From Polyangia bacterium (GTDB lineage Bacteria; Myxococcota_A; Polyangia; HGW-17), in assembly GCA_041686345.1 (NCBI GenBank), contig JAWLEA010000002.1, forward strand, positions 5,318-69,317: a DNA stretch of 64,000 nt. The letters are read 5' to 3'. Positions within the stretch are counted from its first letter, which is position 1. Every line of letters begins with the position of its first letter. Shown here piece by piece: positions 3,241 through 60,531 of the stretch. Both the position numbers and the translations under genes were made by a program. The notes below the pieces were generated by a model. That model worked only from the letters and a program-made list of their open reading frames with translations, did not search any database and had not been told where the DNA came from.

Positions 3241-3636
3241 TTATTTGGTATATTTGATTTTTACCCTTCTAATATCACTTCTACCTTTAAGCTTGAGATA
3301 TTTTTTCATCCTGGCGAAGATTTTATTGCCTATTCCTTTGATTCTTTTGATTTGATGAATTTTGGAAAACTTCTTCTTTTGACGGTATTTTGCAATTGCA
3401 GCAGCTTTTTTTCTGCCAATTCCGGGAATTATTACCATCTTCTTGGTAGATGCATTATTGATATTGAGTTTTCCCGAAATTTTCCATCTGTACTTTCTCG
3501 ATTTTCTTTTGGCTTTTACAGTTGAGAAGTGAAAACCTCCAACCAAAACAGAAAATAAGACAACCAACGAACAAAAAATACGCATTTTCATAATGTACTC
3601 CTTTAATTTAACTATGGTCTGAACTGAATGTGACAA
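3241..3636 (-). CDS. comEA: ComEA-family helix-hairpin-helix DNA-binding protein
   Basis: N-terminal signal/TM segment. Tandem HhH region NINNASTKKMVIIPGIGRKKAAAIAKYR...IKRIKGIGNKIFARMKKYL matches the ComEA consensus. Confidence 0.75.
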   Translation of the reverse strand: MSHSVQTIVKLKEYIMKMRIFCSLVVLFSVLVGGFHFSTVKAKRKSRKYRWKISGKLNINNASTKKMVIIPGIGRKKAAAIAKYRQKKKFSKIHQIKRIKGIGNKIFARMKKYLKLKGRSDIRRVKIKYTK

Positions 3637-3674
3637 TATTGTCCTTCAATTAACCAGAGTTTTAAATATGAATT

Positions 3675-3701
3675 GCCGCCCTCATTGGCGGTACTTTTTT
3701 T
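3675..3701 (+). terminator. Orphan intrinsic-terminator-like hairpin plus T-run
   Basis: GCCGCCctcattGGCGGT followed by ACTTTTTTT. No plus-strand gene lies upstream; it sits in the comEA/lamB divergent region. Confidence 0.3.
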
Positions 3702-4005
3702 AAAAGCACAACCTGTGCCAAAGTATAATTGACAATAATAACAGTATATTAAGCAGTTAACTCTGGAATAACCACTCCATTTGTCGTCCCCTTGCGGACA
3801 TAGTGTCCAAAACAGGTTACGTTTATAGTAAAAGTTTTCATTTGACCCTGTTCAACAGATAAATTATCCTCTGAAAATAATGATTTTTTCCCCGGTACTC
3901 GTACCAATATTATTCAGTTGAGCCATTTACATACATGGAAACTAACTAGTCTTCTTTCACTGAAGTCCAGGCGACCCTGTTTCCAACAGGAATAAAGAGG
4001 TTATA

Positions 4006-5694
4006 ATGAACACTTTCTTTACTGTTTTCTCATTATTTTTTTTATTGCAAAATACTGATATTAATTCCAATGACAATTCCCAAGAATCCGTCAATAATAT
4101 TGCTTCCGATCAGCCAGAAGAATCATCAGACACAAGTGATGCCACCTCCACTGGATTTGAAAACCAACCTGCTGTTTCTTCACCTGTTTCTAAGACCATA
4201 AAAAAAAACCAGCCTGTCTCCATTACCAATGACAGCACAACTTCAAATACCAATGACAGCACAACTTCAAATACCAAAAAGGTGACACCTGAAACTTCTG
4301 AAATTCCATCCCCCGTTAAAAATAAAACCAAAGAAAAACCCATTGAAAAATCTGACAAAGAAAAAAAGTCTCTTTTTTCCAATTTTGGTTTTGGAAGTTA
4401 TGGAAGGGTAAATTTCGGCTCCAATTTTGACGGAGAACCAATTTATCCTGTTAATATCACTGCCCATGGACCCCGCCTCGAAGAATCTACTTATCTGGAG
4501 TTGGATCTTTACTATCTTTACAACCCGGTTAAAAGCATCAAAACAAAAACTGTTACCACCCTGGCTTTGAAAAACTCGCTTTTTCACTATGATGCCCAAT
4601 GGGACGCAAGTATTGCGGTAAGAAATCTCTATCTCCAGGTACAACAGGAAAATTTTCCCCATCTTTCCCTGTGGGCCGGTTCCAGAATGTACAGAGGTGA
4701 CGACATCTATCTCCTTGATTATTGGCCTCTTGATAACCTGAACACCCTGGGAGCGGGAATCTGGTATGACAAAAAACCACTGAGGGGTGGTTTGCATATA
4801 GGTACCAACCGGGTTCTTGGTCAATACCAATATCAGGAAATGCAGGTTTCTGATCCTTTTATTGGAGCCCGCACCATTACAACCATGAACCGACAACGCA
4901 CCATTGCCAGTCTTAAATTTGAATATTGGAAAAAAATCAAAAATTCCGTTGGTTTCAAAATTAAGGGCTACACTGAATTTCACACACTGCCATCAGGAAC
5001 CTACAATGCCCTCGAAAGCGAGGAAGAACAAATAAATTTTCCTAATGAACAGGGGTATGTGGCCGGAGCTCAAATCGGTATCTGGGATTTCCATCCCCAT
5101 TCTTTTCTTAATATTTTTGCCAGATACGGCCGGGGACTTGGCGCCTATGGCGAATTTTCCCAACCTCTGGGACTGGGCTGGAGTCAGGATTATGATTCCA
5201 ATTACAGTGTAGAGGGAGCTCAAGATCTGGTGCTGGCATTCAGTGCCAACTTTGTCATTCCCAAGCGCTTCGGCTTGATGGCCGGTGGTTATTACCGCTA
5301 TTTCAAAGATGCCGATGACAGCAATTATGATTGGGACGATGGAACGGAAATGGTTTTTTCAGTGCGTCCTCATTTATGGATACCTGAACTCACAGGTAAC
5401 AATTTTGCCCTGGCAGGAGAAATATCCTGGCAGAATTCATCACGCAACGGTCTTTATCCTGATACTCAAACCCCACTTTCTCCTTCTGTCTGGAAATTTT
5501 CATTAATTCCAACCTGGATTTCAGGTTTGAATACATATTCCAGGCCTGCAATCAGACTGGTTTACACTGTGGCAATGCCCAACGAAGATACCAGAAAACT
5601 GTATCATGAAAACGACTGGCGCGTAACTCGCAAAGTGGAGCACTTTATTGGAATACAAGCTGAATGGTGGTTCAATTCCTCCACTTATCAATAA
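4006..5694 (+). CDS. lamB: Maltoporin (LamB-family carbohydrate-selective porin) with S/T-rich N-terminal extension
   Basis: Signal peptide. C-terminal SRPAIRLVYTV...IGIQAEWWF matches E. coli LamB SRPAIRVFATY...FGAQMEIWW. WAGSRMYRGDDIYLLDYW aligns with LamB [20 protein letters not shown]. It is adjacent to a GH13 amylase. Confidence 0.8.
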   Translation: MNTFFTVFSLFFLLQNTDINSNDNSQESVNNIASDQPEESSDTSDATSTGFENQPAVSSPVSKTIKKNQPVSITNDSTTSNTNDSTTSNTKKVTPETSEIPSPVKNKTKEKPIEKSDKEKKSLFSNFGFGSYGRVNFGSNFDGEPIYPVNITAHGPRLEESTYLELDLYYLYNPVKSIKTKTVTTLALKNSLFHYDAQWDASIAVRNLYLQVQQENFPHLSLWAGSRMYRGDDIYLLDYWPLDNLNTLGAGIWYDKKPLRGGLHIGTNRVLGQYQYQEMQVSDPFIGARTITTMNRQRTIASLKFEYWKKIKNSVGFKIKGYTEFHTLPSGTYNALESEEEQINFPNEQGYVAGAQIGIWDFHPHSFLNIFARYGRGLGAYGEFSQPLGLGWSQDYDSNYSVEGAQDLVLAFSANFVIPKRFGLMAGGYYRYFKDADDSNYDWDDGTEMVFSVRPHLWIPELTGNNFALAGEISWQNSSRNGLYPDTQTPLSPSVWKFSLIPTWISGLNTYSRPAIRLVYTVAMPNEDTRKLYHENDWRVTRKVEHFIGIQAEWWFNSSTYQ

Positions 5695-5745
5695 AAAGTT
5701 GATACAAATTTTCAAAACCGCTCCTTTCAAGCCAAGAGGATCAAA

Positions 5746-7716
5746 ATGAAATATTTACTTTTATATCTGCTGTTGATTTTATTTTCCTTCTCCTGTTCCA
5801 GCCATGACTCTGAATCCATACTTCAGGATTCTTTCATAACTAAAGTTGAAATTGGCGACTGGAGGGATGAAATAATTTACCAGGTGCTGGTAGATCGATT
5901 TCACGACGGAGACAAGAACAACAATTTCAACGTCGATACTTCTGCCATGGCTCGCTATCACGGCGGAGACTGGCAAGGGCTGATTGACAAGATGGACTAT
6001 CTTCAAACCCTCGGAGTAACCACCATCTGGATCAGTCCAGTGGTCAAAAATGTCGAAGAAGATGCAGGGTTCGCCAGTTATCATGGCTACTGGACCCAGG
6101 ATTTTCTGGAAACAAATCCTCACTTCGGTTCTCTGACAGATCTGCGAAAAATGGTCGATGCAGCTCATAAACGAGATATAAAAGTTATTCTCGATGTTGT
6201 CACCAACCATGTGGGACAACTTTTTTATTATGATATCAATGGCAACGGTCAACCTGATGATACCTTGATGGGGCAAGGAGAAACTTCTCCTCTTACCAGG
6301 ATCACCGAATGGGATCCTGATTATGATCCCAGAGGTATTCAGGGTTGGACTTCTTTGGGGGAATCTGGAGATGCACCTATCAGATGGGTTAAAATGCCGG
6401 AAATCAACCGTATGCCACCCAATCCAGCCAGCTTTCACAATGATTCCTGGTTTCACCGCCGGGGCAGAGTAACCGTCTGGGGCAGAGAACAACAAGCCTG
6501 TGACGATTTGGGACTGGCCGGGAGTCCCTCCGAACGATACAGCGAATGTTACGAATATATCAGAGAACAGGAAATCTACGGTGATTTTCCCGGAGGACTA
6601 AAAGATATAGCCACTGAACGTGAAGATGTTCAGGAAGCCCTGATTGAGGTTTTCAAATACTGGGTCAAAGTTGGAGATTTTGACGGCTTTCGCATCGATA
6701 CAGTCAAACACATAGATTATGATTTCTGGAGAAATTTTAATCGCTCCATCCGTGATTATGCAGTTAACAAATTAGGCAAGAAAAACTTCTATATTTTCGG
6801 CGAAGCCTTTACAGGCATAGATTGGCTGATTGCAAGCTACACCGGCGACGATATGTTCGACGGGCTTTTCTACTTTTCTCAAAAGTTTCAGGTTTTTGAC
6901 GCTGTTTTCAAAAACGGCCAACCTACAATCGGCGTTGAAAACATCCTCAATGACAGACTTAACGGAGCCGACGGCCAACCCCCTTATTCAGCTACCGGCA
7001 ATGAATTTGGTCCTGAAGACGACAACGGGAATCTGATTTCTCCCCGCAGCCTGCTGGTAAATTTCATGGATAATCACGATGTTCCCAGATTTCTTTTTGA
7101 TAAAAACAGCTTGGAAGCCCTGCATTCAGCTCTGGTTTTTCTGCTCACCTGGGATGGAATTCCCTGTATCTATTACGGGACTGAACAACAGTTTTCCGGG
7201 GGCAATGATCCCATGAACCGTGAAAATATGTGGAAAGAATACAATATGCCGATTAATCCGGAAAGTAACAGACGCTATCAAACTTTTAACACCGACAATC
7301 CCACCTTCAAAACTATCCAGACTCTGATTACCATTCGCAAAGAATATCCTCCTTTGAGACGGGGAGGAGTTTCCATAAAATGGGTTTCAAGTGTCAACGC
7401 CAATAACAATGAGCAGGACGGGTCAGGATTTCCACTTCATCCCGATCGTGGAATTCTTGCTTTTGAACGTTCCTACAACAGTGACAGGGTATTGGTAGTT
7501 ATCAACACCAGTGATACCCTCACCTCCTATACTCATTCCTATTCCAATGATCCCATGCCTACAAGCTTTTCCCAAGGAACCACTCTGAAAAATATCTATT
7601 GTCAGGATCGCGTATGCGAAGGAGATGAAGGTGGCACTTACACCACCGGAGTTAATGGAAGTCTCGATCTCACCCTTAAACCCCGCCAAGCTTTGATTCT
7701 GGTACAGAATAATTAA
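5746..7716 (+). CDS. Alpha-amylase family GH13 lipoprotein
   Basis: Lipobox LILFSFSCSS. GH13 conserved regions: DVVTNH, GFRIDTVKH (nucleophile Asp), FGEAF (acid/base Glu), FMDNHD. Confidence 0.9.
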   Translation: MKYLLLYLLLILFSFSCSSHDSESILQDSFITKVEIGDWRDEIIYQVLVDRFHDGDKNNNFNVDTSAMARYHGGDWQGLIDKMDYLQTLGVTTIWISPVVKNVEEDAGFASYHGYWTQDFLETNPHFGSLTDLRKMVDAAHKRDIKVILDVVTNHVGQLFYYDINGNGQPDDTLMGQGETSPLTRITEWDPDYDPRGIQGWTSLGESGDAPIRWVKMPEINRMPPNPASFHNDSWFHRRGRVTVWGREQQACDDLGLAGSPSERYSECYEYIREQEIYGDFPGGLKDIATEREDVQEALIEVFKYWVKVGDFDGFRIDTVKHIDYDFWRNFNRSIRDYAVNKLGKKNFYIFGEAFTGIDWLIASYTGDDMFDGLFYFSQKFQVFDAVFKNGQPTIGVENILNDRLNGADGQPPYSATGNEFGPEDDNGNLISPRSLLVNFMDNHDVPRFLFDKNSLEALHSALVFLLTWDGIPCIYYGTEQQFSGGNDPMNRENMWKEYNMPINPESNRRYQTFNTDNPTFKTIQTLITIRKEYPPLRRGGVSIKWVSSVNANNNEQDGSGFPLHPDRGILAFERSYNSDRVLVVINTSDTLTSYTHSYSNDPMPTSFSQGTTLKNIYCQDRVCEGDEGGTYTTGVNGSLDLTLKPRQALILVQNN

Positions 7717-7718
7717 TT

Positions 7719-9506
7719 ATGATAAATTTACCAAATTATTTCAACTGTCAAGCCAAATTATTTCTGTTTTTTCTTACTTTTTCCTTGCTTGGTTGCTCCA
7801 AGCAGAAAACATCAAATAAATCTCCCAGCAAAGAAGGATATATTAAAACCATCAAAAGATGTAATTCCGAAATTGTTCAGCACTATGTTCCTCTATTGGA
7901 TCAACATCTTAAAAAAACAGCCTTGATGCTGCAAAAAAGCAAAAAAGGGAAAATGGAAACAATCACCGGAAAAAACAAAAAAACTCTGGCCAGAAGACTT
8001 GTAAATGAAGTACTGAAAACCTTCAGAAGATCAAAAAGAAATAAACATCTTAAACGTCTGATGGCAACCCAATATCGACCATTGCGAAAATGTTACAAAT
8101 TGAGCAATTGTAAAAAATTTGCCAAATGCCTCACCGAAGTCACCAAACTTTCAAATTTTAATCAGATCAGAACCAGTGATATCATCAAGATTCGTCCTGA
8201 AAAACCCAAAAAAACCGACTCTGGATCTCTTCCCGGAAAACATAAATCTCCTTTAATTTCTATAACCTTAAAAAATTTCGATTTGGCAGTTTATAATCAG
8301 GAATTGGATTTGCGTAATGTTCTCAAAGCCTCCTCCCCTCATCTTTTGCTTGTAAAAAACAAAACTATTTCAATATTGGAGAAACAAAACTCCACCAAAA
8401 TAAAAACAATCAAAACTGTTGATTTATCTTCATATGGTGGAGAAATTGAACTGTTGAAAGGCCAAAATGGGGAAATAATCATCAAAACCAAACATGCTCT
8501 CCTGCTTCTTGATCGACGATTTCGCACCCTTCCAGTCTGGAAACCAAAAAAAGGAGAAATAATCGGTTCGGCTTATCTTCATAACAACCATCTCCTTCTT
8601 GGAACCGGAAGGGATTTTGTTGTTTTAAACAGCAAATTCCGCAAAATTGCCAGACTTGATTTAAAAATCCACAAGAGAGGCAAAGAAGTTCATGATATCA
8701 TGGTTCATAAAAACCAGGCTCTGCTTCTGGACAACCGCCGTGTCCCTGTATTAATTTTCAGAGTTGATATTTCCAAACCTGCTCAACCAAAAATCATCGA
8801 AAGAATAAATGAAGATGGGATTTATGCCCACCTGATTCATCAATGGGTGGATGTTCCCAAAAAACGTTGGGGTATTTTCATGAATACCCATGGACGCTGT
8901 GGCACAACCCAGCATCTTCTGCTGTTGAAACTCCAACTAAATGATAAACAAACTGCCACAAATACAATTCAATCAAAGTTTAAAACAAATAGATATTTTC
9001 CTTCAAATACGGGCAGCAAAAATTCGCATCTTCTTGCCAAAACTAAATTCTATCAATATCTTGCCAAACATTGTTCCCAACTTTCTCCTGTCAATAAAAA
9101 GGGAAAGAAAAACAAACTCTCCACCAGTAAAGACAAGTTTGGGAATTCTATTTCAGGTTATAAATTTCTCAGCGGTTCTCAATTATTTCCCTTTTGGAGT
9201 TTATTCAAACAAAAGGATTTTTTCTATTTGGGCAAACTGAAAATCACAGGAAAAATAGCCAAAGCTTATGATCTGAAAAAACTTAATCTGAAAAAATGCA
9301 CCGGCTGGTTTTCAAAAAGAGGCGAAAAAAAGAAATGCAGCAGTTATTCCTATCCCAGCAAGGCAGCATTTGCGGCAAACAAAAACAACCTGATTGTATT
9401 TGCTGAAAAAAATATATACTGGTACAGAGCGAATAATCCTCCCAAATTAATAAATAAACTGAAAACTGATATCTACAACCCGGATTCGATTATTTTTTAC
9501 CCCTGA
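7719..9506 (+). CDS. Hypothetical lysine-rich lipoprotein
   Basis: Lipobox LLGCSK. 595 aa with no recognisable domain. Immediately downstream of the amylase with a 2-bp gap. Confidence 0.6.
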   Translation: MINLPNYFNCQAKLFLFFLTFSLLGCSKQKTSNKSPSKEGYIKTIKRCNSEIVQHYVPLLDQHLKKTALMLQKSKKGKMETITGKNKKTLARRLVNEVLKTFRRSKRNKHLKRLMATQYRPLRKCYKLSNCKKFAKCLTEVTKLSNFNQIRTSDIIKIRPEKPKKTDSGSLPGKHKSPLISITLKNFDLAVYNQELDLRNVLKASSPHLLLVKNKTISILEKQNSTKIKTIKTVDLSSYGGEIELLKGQNGEIIIKTKHALLLLDRRFRTLPVWKPKKGEIIGSAYLHNNHLLLGTGRDFVVLNSKFRKIARLDLKIHKRGKEVHDIMVHKNQALLLDNRRVPVLIFRVDISKPAQPKIIERINEDGIYAHLIHQWVDVPKKRWGIFMNTHGRCGTTQHLLLLKLQLNDKQTATNTIQSKFKTNRYFPSNTGSKNSHLLAKTKFYQYLAKHCSQLSPVNKKGKKNKLSTSKDKFGNSISGYKFLSGSQLFPFWSLFKQKDFFYLGKLKITGKIAKAYDLKKLNLKKCTGWFSKRGEKKKCSSYSYPSKAAFAANKNNLIVFAEKNIYWYRANNPPKLINKLKTDIYNPDSIIFYP

Positions 9507-9564
9507 GATTGCAATTGTAATTATTGTTGACACAACAAGCAAGTCGGCAAAAAAGCAGGGGAAT

Positions 9565-10620
9565 CTATTCGTGAACTACACAATTTCTACCTGCATTTTT
9601 GGCCTTGTAGAGATTGGTGTCGGCTTTTTGAATAAGTTCTCCCGGTGAATTGATGTTTTCATGGTTGGGATTAAAGGTATAAACCCCTAAACTTATGGTT
9701 ACAGTTACCATATTGCCTTCTGTATTCATCTTTTTGTCACCAACGCTTTTTCGAGCTCTTTCAGCAAACTCTATAGCACCTTTTAAGCCTGTATCAGGAA
9801 GAACAACTGTAAATTCTTCTCCTCCATAGCGGGCAAAAATTTCATTTTTGCGTACAGTAGACCTGATCCTGCTGGCAACTTCTTTCAAAACCAGATCCCC
9901 GATTAGGTGTCCATAATTATCATTAAATTCTTTAAAATGGTCAATATCAATCATGACCAGGCTGAGAGGATAATCGGAGCGCTTGGTACGCTCTATTTCT
10001 CGATCGAGATAGTCCAGGAGATATCTTTTATTGTAGGCTTCGGTGAGGGCATCTATGATGGTAAGTCGGTAGACCTCATCATGGTAGATGGTTTCATATT
10101 GATCTCCATGGAGAAATTTAAGCAAAACAGTACCAACCCTGATCATGTCTTGATTTTTGATAAAACGCTTGCCTCTAACCATAGTGTCATTAACGTAGGT
10201 TCCATTTGTGGAACCCATATCCCTGATCATATATTTTCCATTATTTGAAATTATCTGGGCATGCTTGCGGGATACACTGTCATTGATAAGCTGGATATCG
10301 GTATCAGGCTGGCGACCAATTATAGTAACAGATGATGATGGTATTTCTTTTGTTCTGCCCAGACCTGCTTCCGGAGGATACATTATTATAAGAACCCCAT
10401 TGCGATTAACTTGTTCATGGGGTTCTTCCAATTTGGTCACTTTTGTCTGAATCTCTTCTTCTTCATTTTCCAGGTGTTGATTCACTTCTTCCCTGGCATC
10501 GGGCTGAAGAATATAATGGGTTCTTTTCATTGTTCTTTTTTTATTTTCAGGCCCATTTCCATTGTTTTTATCATCCATTGCCAAATCCTGCTGACCCTTA
10601 TAGTTTCTGTTTATCGCCAA
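9565..10620 (-). CDS. FHA-domain diguanylate cyclase (FHA-GGDEF)
   Basis: FHA motif block IIGRQPDTDIQLINDSVSRKHAQI...GSTNGTYVN. The GGDEF domain carries an intact GGEEF motif (RYGGEEFTVVL). An acidic/low-complexity leader of about 100 aa precedes the FHA domain. Confidence 0.85.
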   Translation of the reverse strand: MAINRNYKGQQDLAMDDKNNGNGPENKKRTMKRTHYILQPDAREEVNQHLENEEEEIQTKVTKLEEPHEQVNRNGVLIIMYPPEAGLGRTKEIPSSSVTIIGRQPDTDIQLINDSVSRKHAQIISNNGKYMIRDMGSTNGTYVNDTMVRGKRFIKNQDMIRVGTVLLKFLHGDQYETIYHDEVYRLTIIDALTEAYNKRYLLDYLDREIERTKRSDYPLSLVMIDIDHFKEFNDNYGHLIGDLVLKEVASRIRSTVRKNEIFARYGGEEFTVVLPDTGLKGAIEFAERARKSVGDKKMNTEGNMVTVTISLGVYTFNPNHENINSPGELIQKADTNLYKAKNAGRNCVVHE

Positions 10621-10644
10621 ATAAAACCTTAAAAATTAAAAATT

Positions 10645-10666
10645 AGTGTTGGACGACTCCAACACT
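10645..10666 (-). terminator. Putative intrinsic terminator downstream of glpK
   Basis: Perfect 9-bp stem AGTGTTGGA/TCCAACACT with a 4-nt loop. On the minus strand it is followed by a U-rich tract (AAUUUUUAAUUUUUAAGGUUUUAUUU), immediately before the FHA-GGDEF start. Confidence 0.4.
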
Positions 10667-10815
10667 TGATTATACACAGCACAAATAAAAGAGCAAATCT
10701 TATTTTAAAAAAAAGAAAAAAGTAAACTTGACTGAAAACTCAGAATACCAAGTTTTGGGGGATCAAGAATAAAAGTTGGAGTTCTGTGAACAAATTTTCA
10801 GCATCGAAAAGATAA

Positions 10816-12300
10816 TCAAATACAAGATTTCTTAACAATCTTTTCCCAATAATCAGTATAATATAAGACTCTTTCTTTGTCCATTTCTGGTTCAAAATTT
10901 CGATCAAATTGAATTTTTGCTTTGATCTGTTTTCGGGAATTGATGATTCCCGCTCCCATTGCAGCTATAGCTGCCGCTCCATAAGCTGTTACTTCCAGAT
11001 TTTTGGGACGATAAACTGTTTTCTGCAAAATATCAGCCTGGAATTGAAGTAAAAGATTGTTGGCTGCTGCTCCTCCGTCTACTTTTAATTGTTCAATCTC
11101 TCTTCCGGCCGCACTCTCCATGGATTTCAACAGGGTAAAATTCTGCAGGACAATCCCATCCAAAACAGCACGAGCTAGATGATTTTTATTGGTATTTCTG
11201 GTCATTCCCCAAAAAACCGCTCTGGCATCAGGCTCCCAATAAGGAGCTCCAAGTCCAGACAAAGCAGGAACAAAGAAAACTCCACCACTATCTTCAACTT
11301 TAGCAGCAAGTTCCTCTATCTCAGCCGAATAACTGATAAGACCTAGATTATCCCGAAACCACTGCACCGCAGCCCCTGCAACAAAAGCACTCCCTTCAAG
11401 ACAATATTCAGTATTACCATCTATATCCCAAGCAACAGTAGTCAACAATCCACTATCAGACAGGACAAATTCATAACCAGTGTTCATCATGATAAAAGCA
11501 CCGGTACCATAAGTACATTTTGCTTCTCCGGGCAAAAAAGCGGCTTGACCAAATAAAGCAGCCTGTTGATCGCCCAAAATCCCGGTTATGGGAATTCCAT
11601 CGGGTAAAACTCCAACTCCTCTGGTTTTACCAAAAAGTGCATTTGAACTTTTGATCTCAGGAAGAACTTTTGTCGGTACTTGCAAATATTCGGCAAGTTC
11701 TTGATCCCACTGCAGAGTTTTCAGGTTAAAAAGAAGAGTACGGGAAGCATTGGTAAAATCTGTGGCATGCTCTTTACCTCCAGTCAACCTGGAAAGAAGA
11801 AAAGAATCAACAGTTCCAAACTTGATTTCTCCCTTTCTGGCTTTTTGGTGAAGATCGTATTCATCAAGAATCCATCTGATTTTTGTCCCGGAAAAATAAG
11901 GATCCAGCAACAATCCGGTTTTCTGATGAAAAACAGGTTCCAACTTTCTTTTTTTCAATTCAGTACAGAGATCTCTGGTACGTCGACATTGCCAGACAAT
12001 AGCAGGTCCGATTGGTTTGAGGGTTTTATTGTCCCACAGAACAGTGGTTTCCCTCTGATTGGTAATTCCAATGGCAGCCAGATCTCTCGGATTTATCTGT
12101 CCTTTTTCCAACACCTGTTTAATAGAACCAAGAGTACTTTGCCAGATATCTTCAGAAGACTGTTCCATCCAGCCATTTTTTGGATAAACAGAAGAAAATT
12201 CAGTATATCCTTTTGCAATAATATTGAGGTCAAGATCCATAATCAGGCAGGTTGTTCCAGAAGTCCCCTGATCAATTGCAAGCAAATATGATTGAGTCAT
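10816..12300 (-). CDS. glpK: Glycerol kinase
   Basis: N-terminal AIDQGTSGTTCLIMD and the FGGY-family sugar-kinase pattern throughout 494 aa. Confidence 0.9.
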   Translation of the reverse strand: MTQSYLLAIDQGTSGTTCLIMDLDLNIIAKGYTEFSSVYPKNGWMEQSSEDIWQSTLGSIKQVLEKGQINPRDLAAIGITNQRETTVLWDNKTLKPIGPAIVWQCRRTRDLCTELKKRKLEPVFHQKTGLLLDPYFSGTKIRWILDEYDLHQKARKGEIKFGTVDSFLLSRLTGGKEHATDFTNASRTLLFNLKTLQWDQELAEYLQVPTKVLPEIKSSNALFGKTRGVGVLPDGIPITGILGDQQAALFGQAAFLPGEAKCTYGTGAFIMMNTGYEFVLSDSGLLTTVAWDIDGNTEYCLEGSAFVAGAAVQWFRDNLGLISYSAEIEELAAKVEDSGGVFFVPALSGLGAPYWEPDARAVFWGMTRNTNKNHLARAVLDGIVLQNFTLLKSMESAAGREIEQLKVDGGAAANNLLLQFQADILQKTVYRPKNLEVTAYGAAAIAAMGAGIINSRKQIKAKIQFDRNFEPEMDKERVLYYTDYWEKIVKKSCI

Positions 12301-12367: not shown

Positions 12368-14554
12368 TTAAAAATCACGACGCAGGTCACTGGTCATCAA
12401 TTTGGCAACTTCTTCCAGTTCATTGGCTGCATTCATCAAACCAATAAGTTTCAATTCATTTTCAACTTTGCTGATGGTTTCAACATATTTTTGAAAATTT
12501 GAATATTTGGCATCGAAAACAATCAAATCCGTTTCCAATTTCTCATTATTTTCTTCGAGCTCAGCCAATTGTTTGTTTTGCTGGGTAATAACTTCCTGCA
12601 GCTTTTTTATCTCTTTGGAATTGAACCCATTGTCTTCTCTATCCATTTCCTTAATTTTGTAATTCATCTCATCAATTTTTGAATTGAGAATATCGATTAT
12701 ATTGTTTTTTTCCTCGATATTGGCTCTTACCTGTTCTTTCAAAGTCTGAATCTCACTTGCGAATTGATTATTGCGATCCTTTTCGAGCAACAAAGAATCT
12801 TCAATTGAATCCATATAAAATTCGCAATTATCAAGACTCCCCATAACACTGGTCAAACTATTTCTACCGGCTTCCAGCATGGTCACCTTTTTATTGAGTT
12901 GTTCTTTCAAGATTTTCAATTTGTTACTTACAACCGTATTTTGCTTTTTTTCTTCGAGAAGTGATTTTGAATAGGATTCACAACTTGATTTCAGGTTCAT
13001 AATTCTTCTTTCAAGTTCTTCAATTTTCTTTTTATTTTCAGAATTTGATTCTCTTGTGGATGATTTGTTGATTTTTGCTTCCAATTGTGCCTTGTCGGTT
13101 TTTAATTGAGCAATTCTGTCTTCAAGATCTTTCAACTTTTTGTGGAGTTCTTTGTCTTCAGAATCCTTAACTTTTCTGGTAAGGTTATCATTTTCATCTT
13201 CCAGGAAAGCAATCTTCAACTCAAATTTTGATTTTTCAGAAGCCAATTGGTCGATATTGTCTCTTGCTTTTTCCAGATTATTCTTGAGGCTTTTCATTCT
13301 GGCGGATAATTCATCATTTTCCAGTTTTAATTTTTTTACATCTTCTATGATATGATTGAAACGACTGTCCTGATTGTCTTTATTCTCGACAACATTCATA
13401 ACTTCTGCCAACTCATCGATTCTTTTGGAAAATTCAGATGAAACAGAACCTTCTTCATAACTATTGGATTTCTCAATCCTGGCCTCCAGTTTTGCATTAT
13501 TGTTTTCCAATAACTCAATGGATTCATACAGAAATTTATTTTCTTCATAGAGTTCTTCCAAATCAATTTCTTTCAGTTCTCCATCGGCATCCTTGTCTAT
13601 TTGGCTTTCTCTGGTTTTAAGCTTTTCCAGTTCATATTGCAAAGCCTGATTATCATAATTGACTTGGGTCAATTTCTTTTCCAATTCAACAATTTCTTTG
13701 GCAAGAAGGGAATTCTCATCATTGAGATTATCCCTCTGGGTTTTCAAATCCTCTATTATCTCGGTCTGTTCGGCTTTTAATTTTGCCAGATGACGATTCT
13801 TGCCAGCTATCACCTTGTTAAGAGCCTCCACTTTATTGTCTTTTTCCATCAAACTAAGTTTTAGTTTTTTATTGCGTTTATTTTGTTTTGTTGTTTTTTT
13901 CTTGAGTTTTTCATATTTTTCCTGAATTCGCTCAAAGTCTGCAGCACCTTGGCTGAGAAGATGCTTGAGGCGGGAAACGGTTGAAGGGTATTTTTGTAAT
14001 TCTTCAATCTGCTCTTCCTGTTCGGATACCTTTTCCTGAAGACTGTTAATCCGAATCATAAATTCTTCTTCTTTTTTAAGAAGATTTTCTATCCTTTCGT
14101 TAGTGGCAATAAACTTTTTTCTGTAAACATCAATATCGGCAGAATTTTCTTTAAGATTTTCATTATCACTTTCCTGCTGTAAACAATTCAACTCTGATTT
14201 TCTGAGATTATTCCCCAATTCTTTAATTTTTTTCTGCAGATTTTTGATCTTTTTTTCTTTGGCTAATATTTCTCTTTTGACTAGAGAATTGAAATTATTT
14301 TGAAAAAAATTATCAAGTTCACCGGTATATTCAAAAATTCTTTCCAGTTTATTTTGAACAAAAGCACTGATTTTTTGAGTTGATTGAGGAAGTTGTTGAT
14401 CTTTTTCAAAATCATTGTTTTGAGAATTTTTGAGAAGTAAATACTTTTTTTTCCATTCTTCTTTTTCAGCCCAGTGGAACATAGTTCTTTCCCTGGATTT
14501 TTGCAGTTCCTCAGTTAAATATTCATGATTTGAAGTATCGCTGGAATTAGTCAT
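12368..14554 (-). CDS. Large coiled-coil protein (728 aa), function unknown
   Basis: Continuous heptad repeats and K/E-rich. No Walker motifs seen. Lies directly downstream of Ser/Thr kinase 14765-15682, with only a MITE between them. Confidence 0.7.
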   Translation of the reverse strand: MTNSSDTSNHEYLTEELQKSRERTMFHWAEKEEWKKKYLLLKNSQNNDFEKDQQLPQSTQKISAFVQNKLERIFEYTGELDNFFQNNFNSLVKREILAKEKKIKNLQKKIKELGNNLRKSELNCLQQESDNENLKENSADIDVYRKKFIATNERIENLLKKEEEFMIRINSLQEKVSEQEEQIEELQKYPSTVSRLKHLLSQGAADFERIQEKYEKLKKKTTKQNKRNKKLKLSLMEKDNKVEALNKVIAGKNRHLAKLKAEQTEIIEDLKTQRDNLNDENSLLAKEIVELEKKLTQVNYDNQALQYELEKLKTRESQIDKDADGELKEIDLEELYEENKFLYESIELLENNNAKLEARIEKSNSYEEGSVSSEFSKRIDELAEVMNVVENKDNQDSRFNHIIEDVKKLKLENDELSARMKSLKNNLEKARDNIDQLASEKSKFELKIAFLEDENDNLTRKVKDSEDKELHKKLKDLEDRIAQLKTDKAQLEAKINKSSTRESNSENKKKIEELERRIMNLKSSCESYSKSLLEEKKQNTVVSNKLKILKEQLNKKVTMLEAGRNSLTSVMGSLDNCEFYMDSIEDSLLLEKDRNNQFASEIQTLKEQVRANIEEKNNIIDILNSKIDEMNYKIKEMDREDNGFNSKEIKKLQEVITQQNKQLAELEENNEKLETDLIVFDAKYSNFQKYVETISKVENELKLIGLMNAANELEEVAKLMTSDLRRDF

Positions 14555-14593
14555 AAATTACTCCAATGAAAATAGTAAATTCCCAATTTTGAC

Positions 14594-14765
14594 TAGTTAG
14601 TTCCCATCCCCAAAATGGATGTCATCGTCTGACGACGGAAATTGAATTAATCTGCTTTGTCATAACTTCTTGAAATAGTGGCAACTATATCTGCGAAGTT
14701 ATTCCGCGCATCTCAATCCAATTTCTTCCCCAGCCGAAAACACCACTTCTGGGATGGGAACTAAT
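14594..14765 (-). repeat. MITE-like element, copy B (full, best-preserved TIRs)
   Basis: Left end ACTAGTTAGTTCCCATCCCCAAAATGGATGTC and right end CCACTTCTGGGATGGGAACTAATT form an imperfect terminal inverted repeat of about 22 bp. The copy exactly fills the gap between the kinase stop (14765) and the coiled-coil start (14554). Confidence 0.85.
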
Positions 14766-15682
14766 TATAACTTACCTAATGATCTGATAAAATCAGAAAA
14801 ATTAATACTGGAGAGAGGAATCCGTTCGTTGACAATAATCTGTTTTAAAAAATTCAAAGCCTCTCCACTGGTTGGTCTTTCCTCGATATTGGGGGAAAGA
14901 CCTGATAAAATCAATTCCTGCAAAGATCCAGGAACATCATTTCTGACATCTTCGAATTTTAACAGTGTACCTTTTTTTTTGAAATATATAAGGGGGTTTA
15001 TCAAAGTAAGGCTTTCAAAAAAACAAACCATGAGAGAATAAACATCAGTTCTTTCATCTCCAACCACCCCATCCAGTTGTTCAGGTGGCATATACCCTTT
15101 TTTGCCGGGAACTTTCCTGAATTTTTTTAATCTGAATCCAGCTTTGGAGATACCAAAATCCGTCAATTTTATCTCACCAGCATTGGAAAGCAGAATATTG
15201 GAAGGTGAAATGTCACGATGAACTATCCCGTCAATATCTTTGGATTTGATTTGTATATTATGGGCATAATTGAGAGCCTGTAACAACTCGAAATAAATAA
15301 ACACTGTAATTTCAACAGGAAAAGAAAGATAATTTTTGATCAATTTTTTAATTGCATTTCTCAAATCAAAACCTTCCACCCATTCCAAAATAATATAGTA
15401 GCGGGTCCGATCTTCAAAAAGGTCAATTACCCGTACAATATTGGAATGACAAAGAGTGGAATAAATTCGAGCTTCACTTTTGAAAAGCTCAACCAGATAG
15501 GGTTTTTTGGCCAGACCAGGCAATAATTCTTTGACAGCCACATCAACTTTGATTCCGCCGGCATTTCTTCTAATTCCTTTGTAAACCGCCCCCATTCCTC
15601 CTACAGTGATTAGTTTTTGTATTTTGTACATCCCATCTTTTAGAACATCACCGGGATCAAGCGGATTATCATTATTTTGCAT
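14765..15682 (-). CDS. Hanks-type Ser/Thr protein kinase, catalytic domain only
   Basis: Gly-loop VGGMGAVYKG. VAVKEL Lys. Catalytic loop HRDISPSNILL (Ser where Lys is canonical). DFGISK. PPE. Confidence 0.85.
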   Translation of the reverse strand: MQNNDNPLDPGDVLKDGMYKIQKLITVGGMGAVYKGIRRNAGGIKVDVAVKELLPGLAKKPYLVELFKSEARIYSTLCHSNIVRVIDLFEDRTRYYIILEWVEGFDLRNAIKKLIKNYLSFPVEITVFIYFELLQALNYAHNIQIKSKDIDGIVHRDISPSNILLSNAGEIKLTDFGISKAGFRLKKFRKVPGKKGYMPPEQLDGVVGDERTDVYSLMVCFFESLTLINPLIYFKKKGTLLKFEDVRNDVPGSLQELILSGLSPNIEERPTSGEALNFLKQIIVNERIPLSSINFSDFIRSLGKL

Positions 15683-19349: not shown

Positions 19350-19366
19350 GTTCCCGTCCCAAAATA
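19350..19366. repeat. Solo MITE-end remnant
   Basis: GTTCCCGTCCCAAAATA matches the terminal inverted repeat (TIR) core. Confidence 0.4.
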
Positions 19367-19441: not shown

Positions 19442-19613
19442 AACTAAATAGTTCCCATCCCAGAATGGGGGTTATTGACTGAATGAGAAGTTTGCCTCAG
19501 ATGCGCGGAATAACTTCGCTGACATAGTTGACACTATTTCAAGAAGTGATGACAAAGCTGATGAGGTATAATTACGCTTTCAGGCGATGACCTTCCTTTT
19601 TGGGACGGGAACT
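19442..19613 (+). repeat. MITE-like element, copy C (full)
   Basis: AACTAAATAGTTCCCATCCCAGAATGGGGG...GCCTCAGATGCGCGGAATAACTTCG...CCTTTTTGGGACGGGAACT. Confidence 0.85.
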
Positions 19614-19665
19614 AAATAGTTCCCATCCCAGAATGGGGGTTATTGACTGTGGGACGGGAACTATA
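19614..19665 (+). repeat. Internally deleted mini-MITE (left 40 bp fused directly to right TIR), in tandem with copy C
   Basis: AAATAGTTCCCATCCCAGAATGGGGGTTATTGACTG is identical to the copy C left end. It is followed immediately by TGGGACGGGAACTATAG. Confidence 0.7.
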
Positions 19666-31278: not shown

Positions 31279-31297
31279 AATTCCCGTCCCAGATTAA
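31279..31297. repeat. Solo MITE-end remnant
   Basis: AATTCCCGTCCCAGATTAA matches the TIR core. Confidence 0.35.
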
Positions 31298-36059: not shown

Positions 36060-36065
36060 AATATC

Positions 36066-36238
36066 TTAGTTCCCATCCCAGAAGTGGTGTTTTTGGCTGG
36101 TGAAAAAGTTTGCCTCAGATGCGCAGATACTTCGCAGACATAGTTGATACTATTTCAAGAAGTTACAATAAAAATGATGAGGTAAAATCACGTCGCCAGA
36201 CGATAACATCCATTTTTTGAGATGTGAACATCTTAGTT
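36066..36238 (+). repeat. MITE-like element, copy D (right TIR decayed)
   Basis: TTAGTTCCCATCCCAGAAGTGGTG...GCCTCAGATGCGCAGATACTTCG...CATCCATTTTTTGAGATGTGAACATCTTAGTT. It is followed by an extra GACGGGAAATATTTCCCG palindrome, in the glmM-pdxJ intergenic region. Confidence 0.8.
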
Positions 36239-36276
36239 GTGACGGGAAATATTTCCCGTTCAAGGAGAATAAAAAA

Positions 36277-38691: not shown

Positions 38692-38825
38692 CTTTTTCAT
38701 CTTCTTCAATTAACCGGTTCGTCTGAAATTTTGCGATTCTTCATATTTTAGAGAATTTTTTCTTGAAAGTATTCAATGTTTAATTTAATAACTAGAAACG
38801 AGAATCAATAATTCCCGCAACAATT

Positions 38826-39001
38826 AACTAGTTTCCATCCCAAAAATGGGGTTATTGGTTGGTGAAGAAGTTTGCCTCAGATGCGCGGAATAACTTCGAA
38901 GACATAGTTGCCACTATATCAAGAAGTTATGACAAAGCAGATGAAGCCAGTTTCCGTCGCCAGACGATGACATCCATTTTTGGGATGGGAACTAACTAGT
39001 T
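38826..39001 (+). repeat. MITE-like element, copy E (full; both AACTAGTT ends intact)
   Basis: AACTAGTTTCCATCCCAAAAATGGGG...GCCTCAGATGCGCGGAATAACTTCG...CATCCATTTTTGGGATGGGAACTAACTAGTT. Lies between nnr and rnfA. Confidence 0.85.
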
Positions 39002-39070
39002 CCTGGAGTCTGTACCTTTGTTTCGGTTGTCATATCTGCTCCAGGTAATATTTTCGGGAGGAAATATCTG

Positions 39071-49608: not shown

Positions 49609-50358
49609 ATTCTCTTACTTCTCCTTGATTTATTGCTTATATCACAAAGACAAATTCCCATTTCAAAGGGTAGATTACCGTCTGAGACAGGATTTTTTTC
49701 TCTTCAATTTTGCAGCAACTTCGTAAGCAGAATCAACCATGCCTGCAAAGTCACCGCGTACTTCCCAATCCAATTTCAACCCCGATCAAGAATCCCCAAT
49801 CATAATAAACAGGAGAATCGAAGAAAATTCATATTTACTGGTTGAATTATGGTATTTTTTCATTATAATAACCAACTAGTTCCCGTTTACTAATCAATTT
49901 TACTAATCAATTGACTTTTCTCGCCAGAGTAAATGGTGTTTCGGGTTTCTTAATTCCTTATTGAAGAACAATAACCTTACAAGGCAATAACAGGATGGTT
50001 TTCAAAAATAATCCTTTTTGTCTTCCATGCTTTTTTGAAAATCCGGGCCACATGGTCAATTTCCTTTTTGTATCTGTTTTATAATATTTTCAATTATATA
50101 TGCCCAGATAACAACTTGTTTTTTTACTCTTGAGTATTTTTCTGGAATTATTCTGGAAAAATCCCCTCTCTGAGATCTTTATCCTATCATTATCCCTTTA
50201 TTCCTTTTGAGTATTTTGCTGAAAACCAAGGAGAACTCATCAGTTTTATTGTTTCTCCTGAATAGATTAAACCAACTGCTGCAAAATTCAAAACGAGTCC
50301 AAAGCCAAAAAATTTTCTTCTTAAGGATTAAGAAACAGAGTTATGAGGAGATATTACC

Positions 50359-52149: not shown

Positions 52150-52507
52150 GGGGTTTTGGGAGCAATAGACGTAAGCCGGGTTCTGTTCCAAAAATATTTG
52201 GTGTGATTATTCATCCAGGCCTGCAGTTACCTGCAGGCTCAAGCGACTACCGGAAAAAGCCCCAGACAGCTGTATATTTCCATTTGTCTTGCTTCAGATG
52301 GGGTTTACCATGCGTTTTTCGTCACCGAAAAACCGGTGCGCTCTTACCACACCCTTTCACCCTTACCGAACTTGTCGGCGGTTTGCTTTCTGTGGCACTT
52401 TCCTTCAGGTCACCCTGACTGGGAGTTACCCAGCATCCTGTCTGGAGAAGCCCGGACTTTCCTCCTGTAAATTTACAGGCAATCACATCACCATCTCCCA
52501 AAACCTG
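52150..52507 (-). ncRNA. rnpB: RNase P RNA, bacterial type A
   Basis: The reverse complement contains GGAGGAAAGTCCGGGC (P4 5' strand), the P3 hairpin CCTGTAAATTTACAGG, AAGGGTGAAAGGGTGTGGTAAGAGCGCACC, and ACAGAACCCGGCTTACG (P4 3' strand). P1 is formed by GGTTTTGGGAG pairing with CTCCCAAAACC. ORFs 52203-52418 and 52289-52570 are artefacts over this RNA. Confidence 0.9.
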
Positions 52508-52571
52508 ATTAATCTATGTAACAAATTAACTGAAAAAGCAATCTATTTTCTTGGAAGAAAACAATTATGAT

Positions 52572-52742
52572 AACTAGTTTCCATCCCAGAAGTGATGTTT
52601 TTAGCTGGGGAAGAAATTGGATTGAGATGCACGGAATAACTTCGCAGTCATAGTTGCCACTATTTCAAGAAGTTACGACAAAGCAGATTAATTCATTTTC
52701 CGTCGCCAGACGATGACCTTCCTTTTGGGGACGGGAACTAGT
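52572..52742 (+). repeat. MITE-like element, copy F (full; reference orientation)
   Basis: AACTAGTTTCCATCCCAGAAGTGATG...GATTGAGATGCACGGAATAACTTCGCAG...CCTTTTGGGGACGGGAACTAGTT. Lies between rnpB and proS. Confidence 0.85.
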
Positions 52743-52904
52743 TAAAATCTGTTTGATAATTTAACTGAATCGATTATTGTTGCATAACCAAAGTAAAGTT
52801 TACTGCCAATGCTGATAATTTGGATTGGCCACCTGGTGCCTCCAAAATCAACATTATCATAACTGAAAACCAGACTATTACCATCAAGTTCAAGGAAAAT
52901 GCAA

Positions 52905-60132: not shown

Positions 60133-60310
60133 TCAATTATTGAAATCCCATTTTGAATCACAAATCTTAAGATTGACAAAAATCCACTTCAGTCAACTTG
60201 ATTAATTAAGTTTGTACTGTTATTGTACTTAAACTTGGATTGGTTTAATTGTTTTAAAACTTGATGATTTGACTGAAAAGTTAATATTTTTTTAATACAA
60301 ATGATTATTC

Positions 60311-60455
60311 AGTTCCCATCTAAAATGGCTGGTCACCCTGAGAAACAGTGAAGTTGATTCTGTCAACTTGATTGTAACCATTATTAAACAGCAGTTATAA
60401 TGTCTGCCGGGTTGGTTCTTGCATTTCATTCAACTTCAACCCTAGAAGGGGAACT
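60311..60455. repeat. Degenerate MITE-like copy with divergent interior
   Basis: Left CAGTTCCCATCTAAAATGGCTGG and right GAAGGGGAACTAC resemble the two TIRs. The interior carries the direct repeat GTCAACTTGATT. Confidence 0.4.
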
Positions 60456-60531
60456 ACTTTTTTTCAACTTTTTCAACAAAACCTAGAATTTTTAACAGTT
60501 CCGGTATTATTTTCAGAGCGGATAATCTACG

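Follow-up and report, generated by a model that had tools for sequence, protein, structure and literature searches.

The short intergenic repeats scattered along the 64-kb stretch of DNA analysed here (the window) are, with a probability of about 0.9, a family of MITEs that carry the ends of IS with an ISNCY-type DDE transposase, are moved in trans, and duplicate a TANNTA target on insertion. An earlier interpretation made from the letters of the window (the sequence-only reading) had proposed either a non-autonomous transposon (MITE) or a REP/structured-RNA family. Its observation of a repeat family is confirmed, with small corrections to the coordinates and to the description of the ends, and the first of its proposals is favoured by the termini, the target-site duplication, the copy number, a filled/empty site, and IS with matching ends. 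The window elements have the properties by which MITEs are recognised: they are short, non-coding (the longest ATG-initiated ORF within a copy is at most 47 aa, with a median of 25), bounded by inverted repeats, flanked by a target-site duplication, dispersed, and share their ends with IS.

Copies of the repeat family in the window

The six full copies listed by the sequence-only reading were aligned, two of them after reverse complementation (mean column identity 77% over ~175 nt), and an nhmmer profile built from this alignment recovered all six at E = 1e-51 to 3e-59. The profile search yielded nine copies and fragments in the 64-kb window, whose GC content is 38.7%, and pairwise identity among window copies is 75-91%. 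Exact protein matching assigns the window to contig JBNJFU010000001.1 of assembly GCA_051747125.1, a MAG whose PdxJ is labelled ‘Myxococcota bacterium’ at NCBI. The copy at which the family was reported, at 14594-14767 on the minus strand (core 14600-14761, 162 nt), is flanked by the hexamers TAATTA and TAACTA, which differ by one mismatch, and spans the whole gap between two co-directional minus-strand genes (12368-14554 and 14765-15682). A second minus-strand copy at 1312-1485 (core 1318-1479; E = 2.5e-54; end motif at 1465-1479) lies between divergent genes and has the hexamers TATTTA / TATTTA. On the plus strand, the copy at 19445-19618 (core 19451-19612; TAAATA / TAAATA; found by both nhmmer and the end motif) is followed head-to-tail by an internally deleted 43-nt copy at 19619-19661 (+), which had also been described and was recovered at E = 2e-7; the TAAATA hexamer is common to both.

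The remaining full copies are likewise on the plus strand. One at 36063-36235 (core 36069-36229, 161 nt, with a degenerate right end; hexamers ATCTTA / ATCTTA) lies between a glmM-like gene and pdxJ and starts 3 nt past the glmM-like stop codon; a short perfect hairpin, GACGGGAAATATTTCCCGTT, occupies 36236-36262, between this MITE and the pdxJ ribosome-binding site. Another, at 38825-38998 (core 38831-38992; TAACTA / TAACTA), separates a YjeF/Nnr-like gene from rnfA. The last, at 52571-52744 (core 52577-52738), has hexamers that do not match (TAACTA / TAGTTA) and lies between the RNase P RNA gene and a proS-like gene. This RNA, at 52156-52499 on the minus strand, is a bacterial RNase P class A RNA (287 bits) and is 71 nt from the MITE copy at 52571.

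Degenerate and partial copies complete the set. The degenerate copy noted near 60.3 kb was recovered at 60304-60462 (-), although it is very degenerate and the match weak (E = 0.003), and the earlier list, every entry of which was found, had missed a degenerate copy at 49646-49805 (-) that is detected both by nhmmer (E = 1e-11) and by a repeat search of the window. The solo ends reported near 19350 and 31280 are borne out by the end motif, as GTTCCCGTCCCAAAA at 19350-19364 (+) and ATTCCCGTCCCAGAT at 31280-31294 (+). Two further reported remnants, GGAAAC-TAACTA-G at 3933-3951 (+) and AACTA-GTTCCCG at 49874-49886 (+), are very short and still readable. The former includes an 8-bp surplus relative to the related genome described below (locus L025, ~570-590), which we read as a terminal remnant or an excision footprint of a MITE. 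Allowing up to three mismatches, the 15-nt end motif GTTCCCRTCCCAGAA occurs 19 times in the window, compared with 3.6 +/- 2.1 times in shuffled sequences, and none of 100 shuffles reached this count. Copies account for ~1.6% of the contig, or 1.9% when deleted and degenerate copies are included.

Termini and target-site duplication

The copies share a core of 161-162 nt with the consensus GTTCCC(A/G)TCCCAGAA…TTYTGGGA(T/C)GGGAAC and terminal inverted repeats of ~20 bp. The core measures 162 nt in five of the six window copies and in nearly all of 72 oriented copies, and the R position of GTTCCC[A/G] covaries between the two ends (AU 41, GC 10). The elements had been described as ending in the palindrome AACTAGTT, which places the boundary too far out: the real termini are GTTCCC…GGGAAC, flanked by TA-NN-TA, and the palindrome is the inverted-repeat tip (AAC / GTT) plus TA, complete only where the commonest hexamers, TAACTA and TAGTTA, are present. 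The ~20-bp terminal inverted repeats of the earlier description do exist, but the outermost A/T assigned to them is part of the flanking hexamer.

On both sides of the core, the TA dinucleotides of TA-NN-TA are near-invariant while the central NN varies (AC, AA, GT, TT, CT, AT, and TC among others). Of 72 copies, 40 have the same NN on the left and on the right, where permutation predicts 10.3 (at most 22 in 10,000 permutations); 32 of the 72 agree at all six bases, and the direct repeat never reaches 7 bases. Since the hexamers are related directly and not as inverted sequences, they are not an extension of the hairpin, and the flanking TANNTA hexamers are a target-site duplication. Later mutation or recombination between copies is needed to account for the 32 of 72 copies in which NN differs between the sides. 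The left hexamer is mostly preceded by T or C and the right one mostly followed by G or A, so the target is the palindromic Y-TANNTA-R. In genomes of 39% GC the NN is AC, AA, GT, TT, or CT, while GG, GC, CC, and CG occur too in contigs of 62-70% GC; such tracking of host base composition is the behaviour of a true duplication. Perfect hexamer duplications (one of them a heptamer) flank 15 of 23 metagenome MITEs.

Distribution in a sister MAG and more distant relatives

An interior-motif scan over one genome per species listed at least 67 loci, and among the matches listed all are in one MAG, ‘Deltaproteobacteria bacterium GH18’ (the sister MAG), which is ~85% identical to the window (84-92% nucleotide identity over a single syntenic stretch, L025 versus window 3362-11233). 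A profile search of 67 sister-MAG loci, totalling 450 kb, found at least ~100 copies and fragments, at least 72 of them full length; the 78 full copies considered below are these 72 and the six of the window. One of them provides a filled and empty site. At L025 4322-4494 the sister MAG reads ggtacaaca-TAACTA-(162-nt core)-TAACTA-actcacg, and the equivalent place in the window reads ggtacagaa-TAATTA-attatg, with one hexamer (the empty target site TAATTA, 7711-7716) and no element. The TAA of this TAATTA is the stop codon of the ORF at 5746-7716.

No copy was found in 20 kb of the relatives L069-L071 (PdxJ ~69% identical, ~37.5% GC), and in L070 the gap between glmM and pdxJ is 8 bp, as opposed to the MITE-filled gap in the window. 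These relatives serve as empty sites and are too distant (~69%) for strain-level polymorphism. With no copies in these relatives and many in the window and the sister MAG, the family is restricted to a narrow clade, within which its density is very high. Sampled copies have a mean pairwise identity of 82%, a median nearest-neighbour identity of 91%, and a best pair at 97.5%; no two of those sampled are identical, so that recent activity is not demonstrable. Copies from the window are as close to sister-MAG copies as to one another. Judged from these identities, the expansion is not very recent, yet the two species differ in at least one insertion.

Genomic context of the insertions

The claim that the elements are always intergenic holds across both genomes: with a crude gene call (longest non-overlapping ORFs of at least 90 aa), none of the 78 full copies in the window and sister MAG lies within an ORF. 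In the window, intergenic positions account for only 18% of TANNTA and 30% of YTANNTAR sites, and the absence of copies from ORFs thus points to strong purifying selection. Distances to gene 5′ ends have a median of 125 nt, while those to 3′ ends have a lower quartile of 3 nt. At 26 of 77 adjacent gene 3′ ends the stop codon falls within the duplication or where it meets the element, the junction stops being formed by the last TA of the duplication and the G of the element. About one-third of the copies at gene 3′ ends are therefore placed on a stop codon because the target contains TAA or TAG. Copies show no preferred orientation relative to transcription at gene 3′ ends (41 same versus 36 opposite, p = 0.65), on stop codons (20 versus 12, p = 0.22), or between co-directional genes (26 versus 15, p = 0.12).

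Head-to-tail arrays with one common hexamer were found in the window (19445-19661) and at L012, L024, L042, L057, and L080. Insertion puts a G after the left hexamer and a C before the right one, which regenerates the preferred target, and this regeneration accounts for the head-to-tail arrays, the many solo ends, and the deleted derivatives of 22-52 nt that abut copies. These mini-copies keep both tips (L047 ~1409-1442, L045 ~877-925, L052 5413-5454, and window 19619-19661), and several have matching hexamers, as in TATGTA-GTTCCCCTCCCAGAATGGGAAC-TATGTA; they resemble palindrome-deletion products.

Full-length insertion sequences with the same ends

Metagenome and viral contigs were searched with the 20-nt pattern TAGTTCCCRTCCCAGAAKKG of the ends, which matched 43 metagenome loci and no viral contig. 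The window-type element is present at two of these loci (L102 and L108), and at the other 41 the same ends belong to elements other than the window-type MITE. Three are full-length IS: L099 489-2156 (1668 bp, duplication TAGCTA / TAGCTA), L097 (1716 bp), and L107 (1679 bp). A fourth IS, L116 1060-2744 (1685 bp, TAACTA / TAACTA), is a homologue from outside this set of loci. The one ORF of each long element, 443-452 aa in length, scores 403-445 bits against the NCBIfam model NF033593, ‘ISNCY family transposase’ (curated cut-off 325), contains the Pfam domains DUF772 and DDE_Tnp_1, and matches IS5 and IS1182 models more weakly. The ISNCY elements recognised by NF033593 may correspond to the ISDol1 group of ISfinder, with whose length (1.6-1.9 kb) and direct repeats (6-7 bp) they agree. 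Four further loci contain partial transposase copies beside the end motif. In GCA_964371655.1, the assembly of L116-L119, a Transposase_mut (IS256-type) gene lies beside the ISNCY copy at positions 1-1018, forming an IS cluster.

An annotated ISNCY copy on S. meliloti pSymA has a transposase that is 47% identical, ends that begin GTGCCCGTCC…, and a 7-bp duplication, TAGTCTA. At ~438-470 of this locus (L115, CP073679.1), a solo right-end remnant, …TTTATGGATGGGCAC, abuts the left 7-bp duplication, the same end-to-end arrangement of solo ends as in the window. Like the window MITE, ISNCY (NF033593) IS have ends of the form GTTCCC[A/G]TCCC…, duplications of 6-7 bp (TA-N2-3-TA), and solo ends that abut copies; unlike them, the MITE is 162 nt long, has no transposase, and has an interior unrelated to that of the IS. 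Because the window elements encode no transposase while their full-length relatives do (403-445 bits), they are therefore derivatives of an ISNCY (NF033593) IS and not members of the IS group itself.

The transposase family is large, with at least 7,893 protein clusters at E <= 1e-30, and most of its homologues come from contigs of 1.6-2.5 kb, which is the length of one IS. A tblastn search with three of the transposases gave no match in the 514 kb sampled, made up of the window and 450 kb of the sister MAG, an absence that is uninformative because contigs of IS size are normally lost from MAGs, and no paired solo ends 0.7-3 kb apart occur in the window or the sister-MAG loci. Shared ends and duplications identify the parent IS group. 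Its partner transposase comes from other metagenomes alone, and the window family may be an orphan. Self-BLAST for long repeats that might be an autonomous IS gave only a 483-bp segment of the sister MAG (L051 6442-6922 versus L052 1-473, 93.6% identity), which is unrelated to the MITE. It is adjacent to a RAYT-like 225-aa ORF that is cut by the locus end (L051 6701-7378, minus strand) and contains the motif ‘…NPVAAGLV…’, as in IS200/RAYT-type Y1 transposases.

The outcomes of the checks that the sequence-only reading had suggested favour the MITE: alignment reveals inverted termini common to the copies, duplications with a variable centre flank them, and the more than 70 copies in the sister MAG extend the family beyond the window. 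IS with matching ends exist in other metagenomes, but none was found in the window lineage as sampled. A search of Rfam, also suggested, returned no family that explains the conservation.

Other MITE families with the same ends

Two further MITE families, in unrelated contigs, are bounded by these ends. Contigs of 62-70% GC from metagenome Ga0272441 contain a 162-nt MITE at ~20 loci (for example L084 9758-9919 and L080 10138-10467), with the same 19-20-nt ends, TANNTA duplications, and one tandem pair; it folds as one hairpin (-97 and -119 kcal/mol). In its ends, duplication, 162-nt core, and full hairpin it resembles the window family, while the interiors have no significant similarity (z below 1), so that homology between the low-GC and high-GC interiors was rejected as not significant. 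The other, a 175-176-nt MITE in contigs of 51-55% GC (Ga0307990 and Ga0075120; L072 405-580, L077, L087, L089, and L094), has the same ends and duplication. Its interior likewise has no significant similarity to that of the window family, and it differs further in that it does not form a full single hairpin.

Proposed mechanism of mobilisation

In the MITE model, the ~20-bp inverted repeats would be the binding and cleavage sites of an ISNCY-family DDE transposase (NF033593; related to IS5 and IS1182), which in this organism would act in trans, being supplied by an autonomous IS of 1.7 kb that shares these ends. The transposase would excise or copy the MITE and insert it at Y-TA-NN-TA-R through cuts probably staggered by 6 bp (rarely 7), and repair would then leave TANNTA duplicated on both sides. 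Since the element starts with G and ends with C, each insertion would recreate the targets TANNTA-G and C-TANNTA, giving rise to arrays and solo ends. Duplication of a target that contains TAA or TAG would preserve the stop codon of the gene, selection would remove insertions within genes, and the intergenic copies would remain. The interior would form one long hairpin, as in many bacterial MITEs.

A conserved hairpin spans the core

Each copy folds as one imperfect hairpin on either strand (z = -8 to -10), with energies of -79 kcal/mol (forward) and -65 kcal/mol (reverse) for copy 38824-39001, and of -82 kcal/mol (forward; -81.8, z = -9.5) and -62 kcal/mol (reverse) for copy 14592-14768. Across 71 aligned copies, 90.2% of cells in the 66-pair hairpin are paired, as against 36-49% when partners are slid, 19 pairs have changed on both sides, and 231 cells are doubly changed compared with 98 +/- 13 in shuffles. 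The whole-core hairpin is maintained by compensatory changes. Stem segments exist in three or four compensating versions (CUGGUGA/UCGCCAG, CUGAAUG/CAUUCAG, CUGGGGA/UUUCCAG, and CUGGGACU/AGUUCCAG), and in some chimeric copies versions are mixed and pairing is lost. In 73 of 74 copies the forward strand folds more stably (mean difference 15.8 kcal/mol), an asymmetry given little weight because the copies share ancestry and the underlying ~7 versus 4 wobble pairs are not significantly different.

Little in the sequence around the hairpin suggests a transcriptional signal. No U-tract follows it, and a scan of one copy (38825-38998) found no promoter-like site inside and two outside, together with two weak terminator-like sites nearby, one of which is inside the copy (6-pair stem at 38837-38852); the shuffle expectation is 0.8 promoter-like and 0.3 terminator-like sites, and nothing in the scan was convincing. 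When the whole window was compared with Rfam at the gathering threshold, only RNase P was matched, and 38780-39040 searched alone gave no match at E <= 1. A strand-specific RNA function was considered and rejected, as the copies have no orientation bias and the folding asymmetry is inherited.

Upkeep of the 66-pair hairpin is not explained by the DDE MITE model alone, as a DDE transposase needs only the inverted repeats. It is conceivable, if rather doubtful, that the full-length hairpin is a functional requirement of the MITE lineage and not a by-product. Two families with unrelated interiors share the same ends, the 162-nt core, and the hairpin at 39% and ~67% GC, which could point to such a requirement. 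If so, the transposase may favour elements this short by way of an intermediate, a cruciform or a hairpin of single-stranded DNA, that unites the ends; alternatively, the host may keep an insertion only if it serves as an RNA hairpin in both directions at the 3′ end of a gene.

Alternative explanations

The structured-RNA alternative of the sequence-only reading, in which the repeats are cis-acting RNAs (3′-UTR terminators, stabilisers, or RNase III sites) conserved for RNA function, would accommodate the single hairpin of each copy (z = -8 to -10), the compensated stem (90% of cells paired over 66 pairs, 19 two-sided pairs, 231 versus 98 +/- 13 doubly changed), the advantage of ~16 kcal/mol that one strand gains in 73 of 74 copies through G-U pairs, and the position of copies near gene 3′ ends. 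It is nonetheless very unlikely as an account of the family: the variable-centre duplications and the ends shared with IS show spread by transposition, the orientation counts are unbiased (41 versus 36, p = 0.65; 26 versus 15, p = 0.12), and the strand asymmetry descends from a common ancestor and amounts to a non-significant ~7 versus 4 wobble pairs. The lack of a U-tract, the single weak terminator-like site and absence of a promoter-like site in the one copy scanned, and the lack of any Rfam match even at E <= 1 argue in the same direction. A secondary, co-opted effect of the MITEs on mRNA, in either orientation, is possible.

Two other modes of movement fit the data poorly. Small circles might integrate by site-specific recombination at a TANNTA core, in an att-like manner, with the direct repeats as crossover cores; tandem copies would then have one hexamer in common, as they do, and resolution of a heteroduplex could give the two differing typical hexamers at 52571-52744 (TAACTA / TAGTTA). 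We consider this highly improbable, given that no recombinase is associated with the elements, their full-length relatives have a gene for a DDE transposase, the central NN is free to follow the base composition of the host, and regeneration of Y-TANNTA-R at each end explains the tandem arrays. The REP proposal of the sequence-only reading, in which REPIN/BIME-like palindromes are moved as single-stranded DNA by a RAYT or IS200-type tyrosine (Y1) transposase, is scarcely credible in view of the 6-bp duplication with its variable centre. Y1 transposases (IS200/IS605, REP/RAYT) make no target-site duplication and insert beside a fixed short motif. A long palindrome with compensatory changes is what a single-stranded hairpin substrate would predict, and the sister MAG does encode an ORF with an IS200/RAYT-like motif (L051 6701-7378), but this RAYT-like ORF has no flanking MITEs at the loci examined, and the ends of the repeats are those that bound a DDE-transposase IS.

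Relation to known elements and implications

As MITEs derived from an ISNCY IS, the window elements invite comparison with Correia/NEMIS (Neisseria), ERIC, and RUP, which are non-coding sequences of 100-200 nt that have inverted repeats and duplications and occur between genes in hundreds of copies, in both orientations. MITEs of the Correia/NEMIS type are often located in 3′ UTRs and can form long RNA hairpins. The window MITE and Correia/NEMIS are both small, non-coding, intergenic hairpin elements found in both orientations, although their inverted repeats are unrelated and their parent transposases differ. Correia elements duplicate only TA, whereas the duplication of the window MITE is the 6-bp TANNTA. 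A promoter, an IHF site, and RNase III processing are further features that set Correia elements apart from the window MITE as described here. REP/REPIN sequences are likewise abundant intergenic palindromes, but REPINs lack a duplication with a variable centre and go with a Y1 transposase, in contrast to the duplication and DDE IS ends of the window MITE.

No description of this MITE family was found in the literature on ISDol1, on ISNCY MITEs, or on MITEs of Myxococc*. As far as we have checked, it is an ordinary kind of element that is unusually dense here and apparently not previously catalogued, and no new kind of system is revealed. Its points of interest are modest: the density, the target that overlaps stop codons, and the conserved 162-nt hairpin architecture. 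For annotation, a GTTCCC…GGGAAC core flanked by TANNTA offers a rule for hundreds of similar repeats in these MAGs, and ends, a target (Y-TANNTA-R), and several derived MITEs can now be assigned to an abundant yet under-described IS group. For the genomes that harbour them, such dense repeats fragment metagenome assemblies and promote rearrangements, and hairpins of 70-80 kcal/mol directly behind stop codons may alter mRNA 3′ ends.
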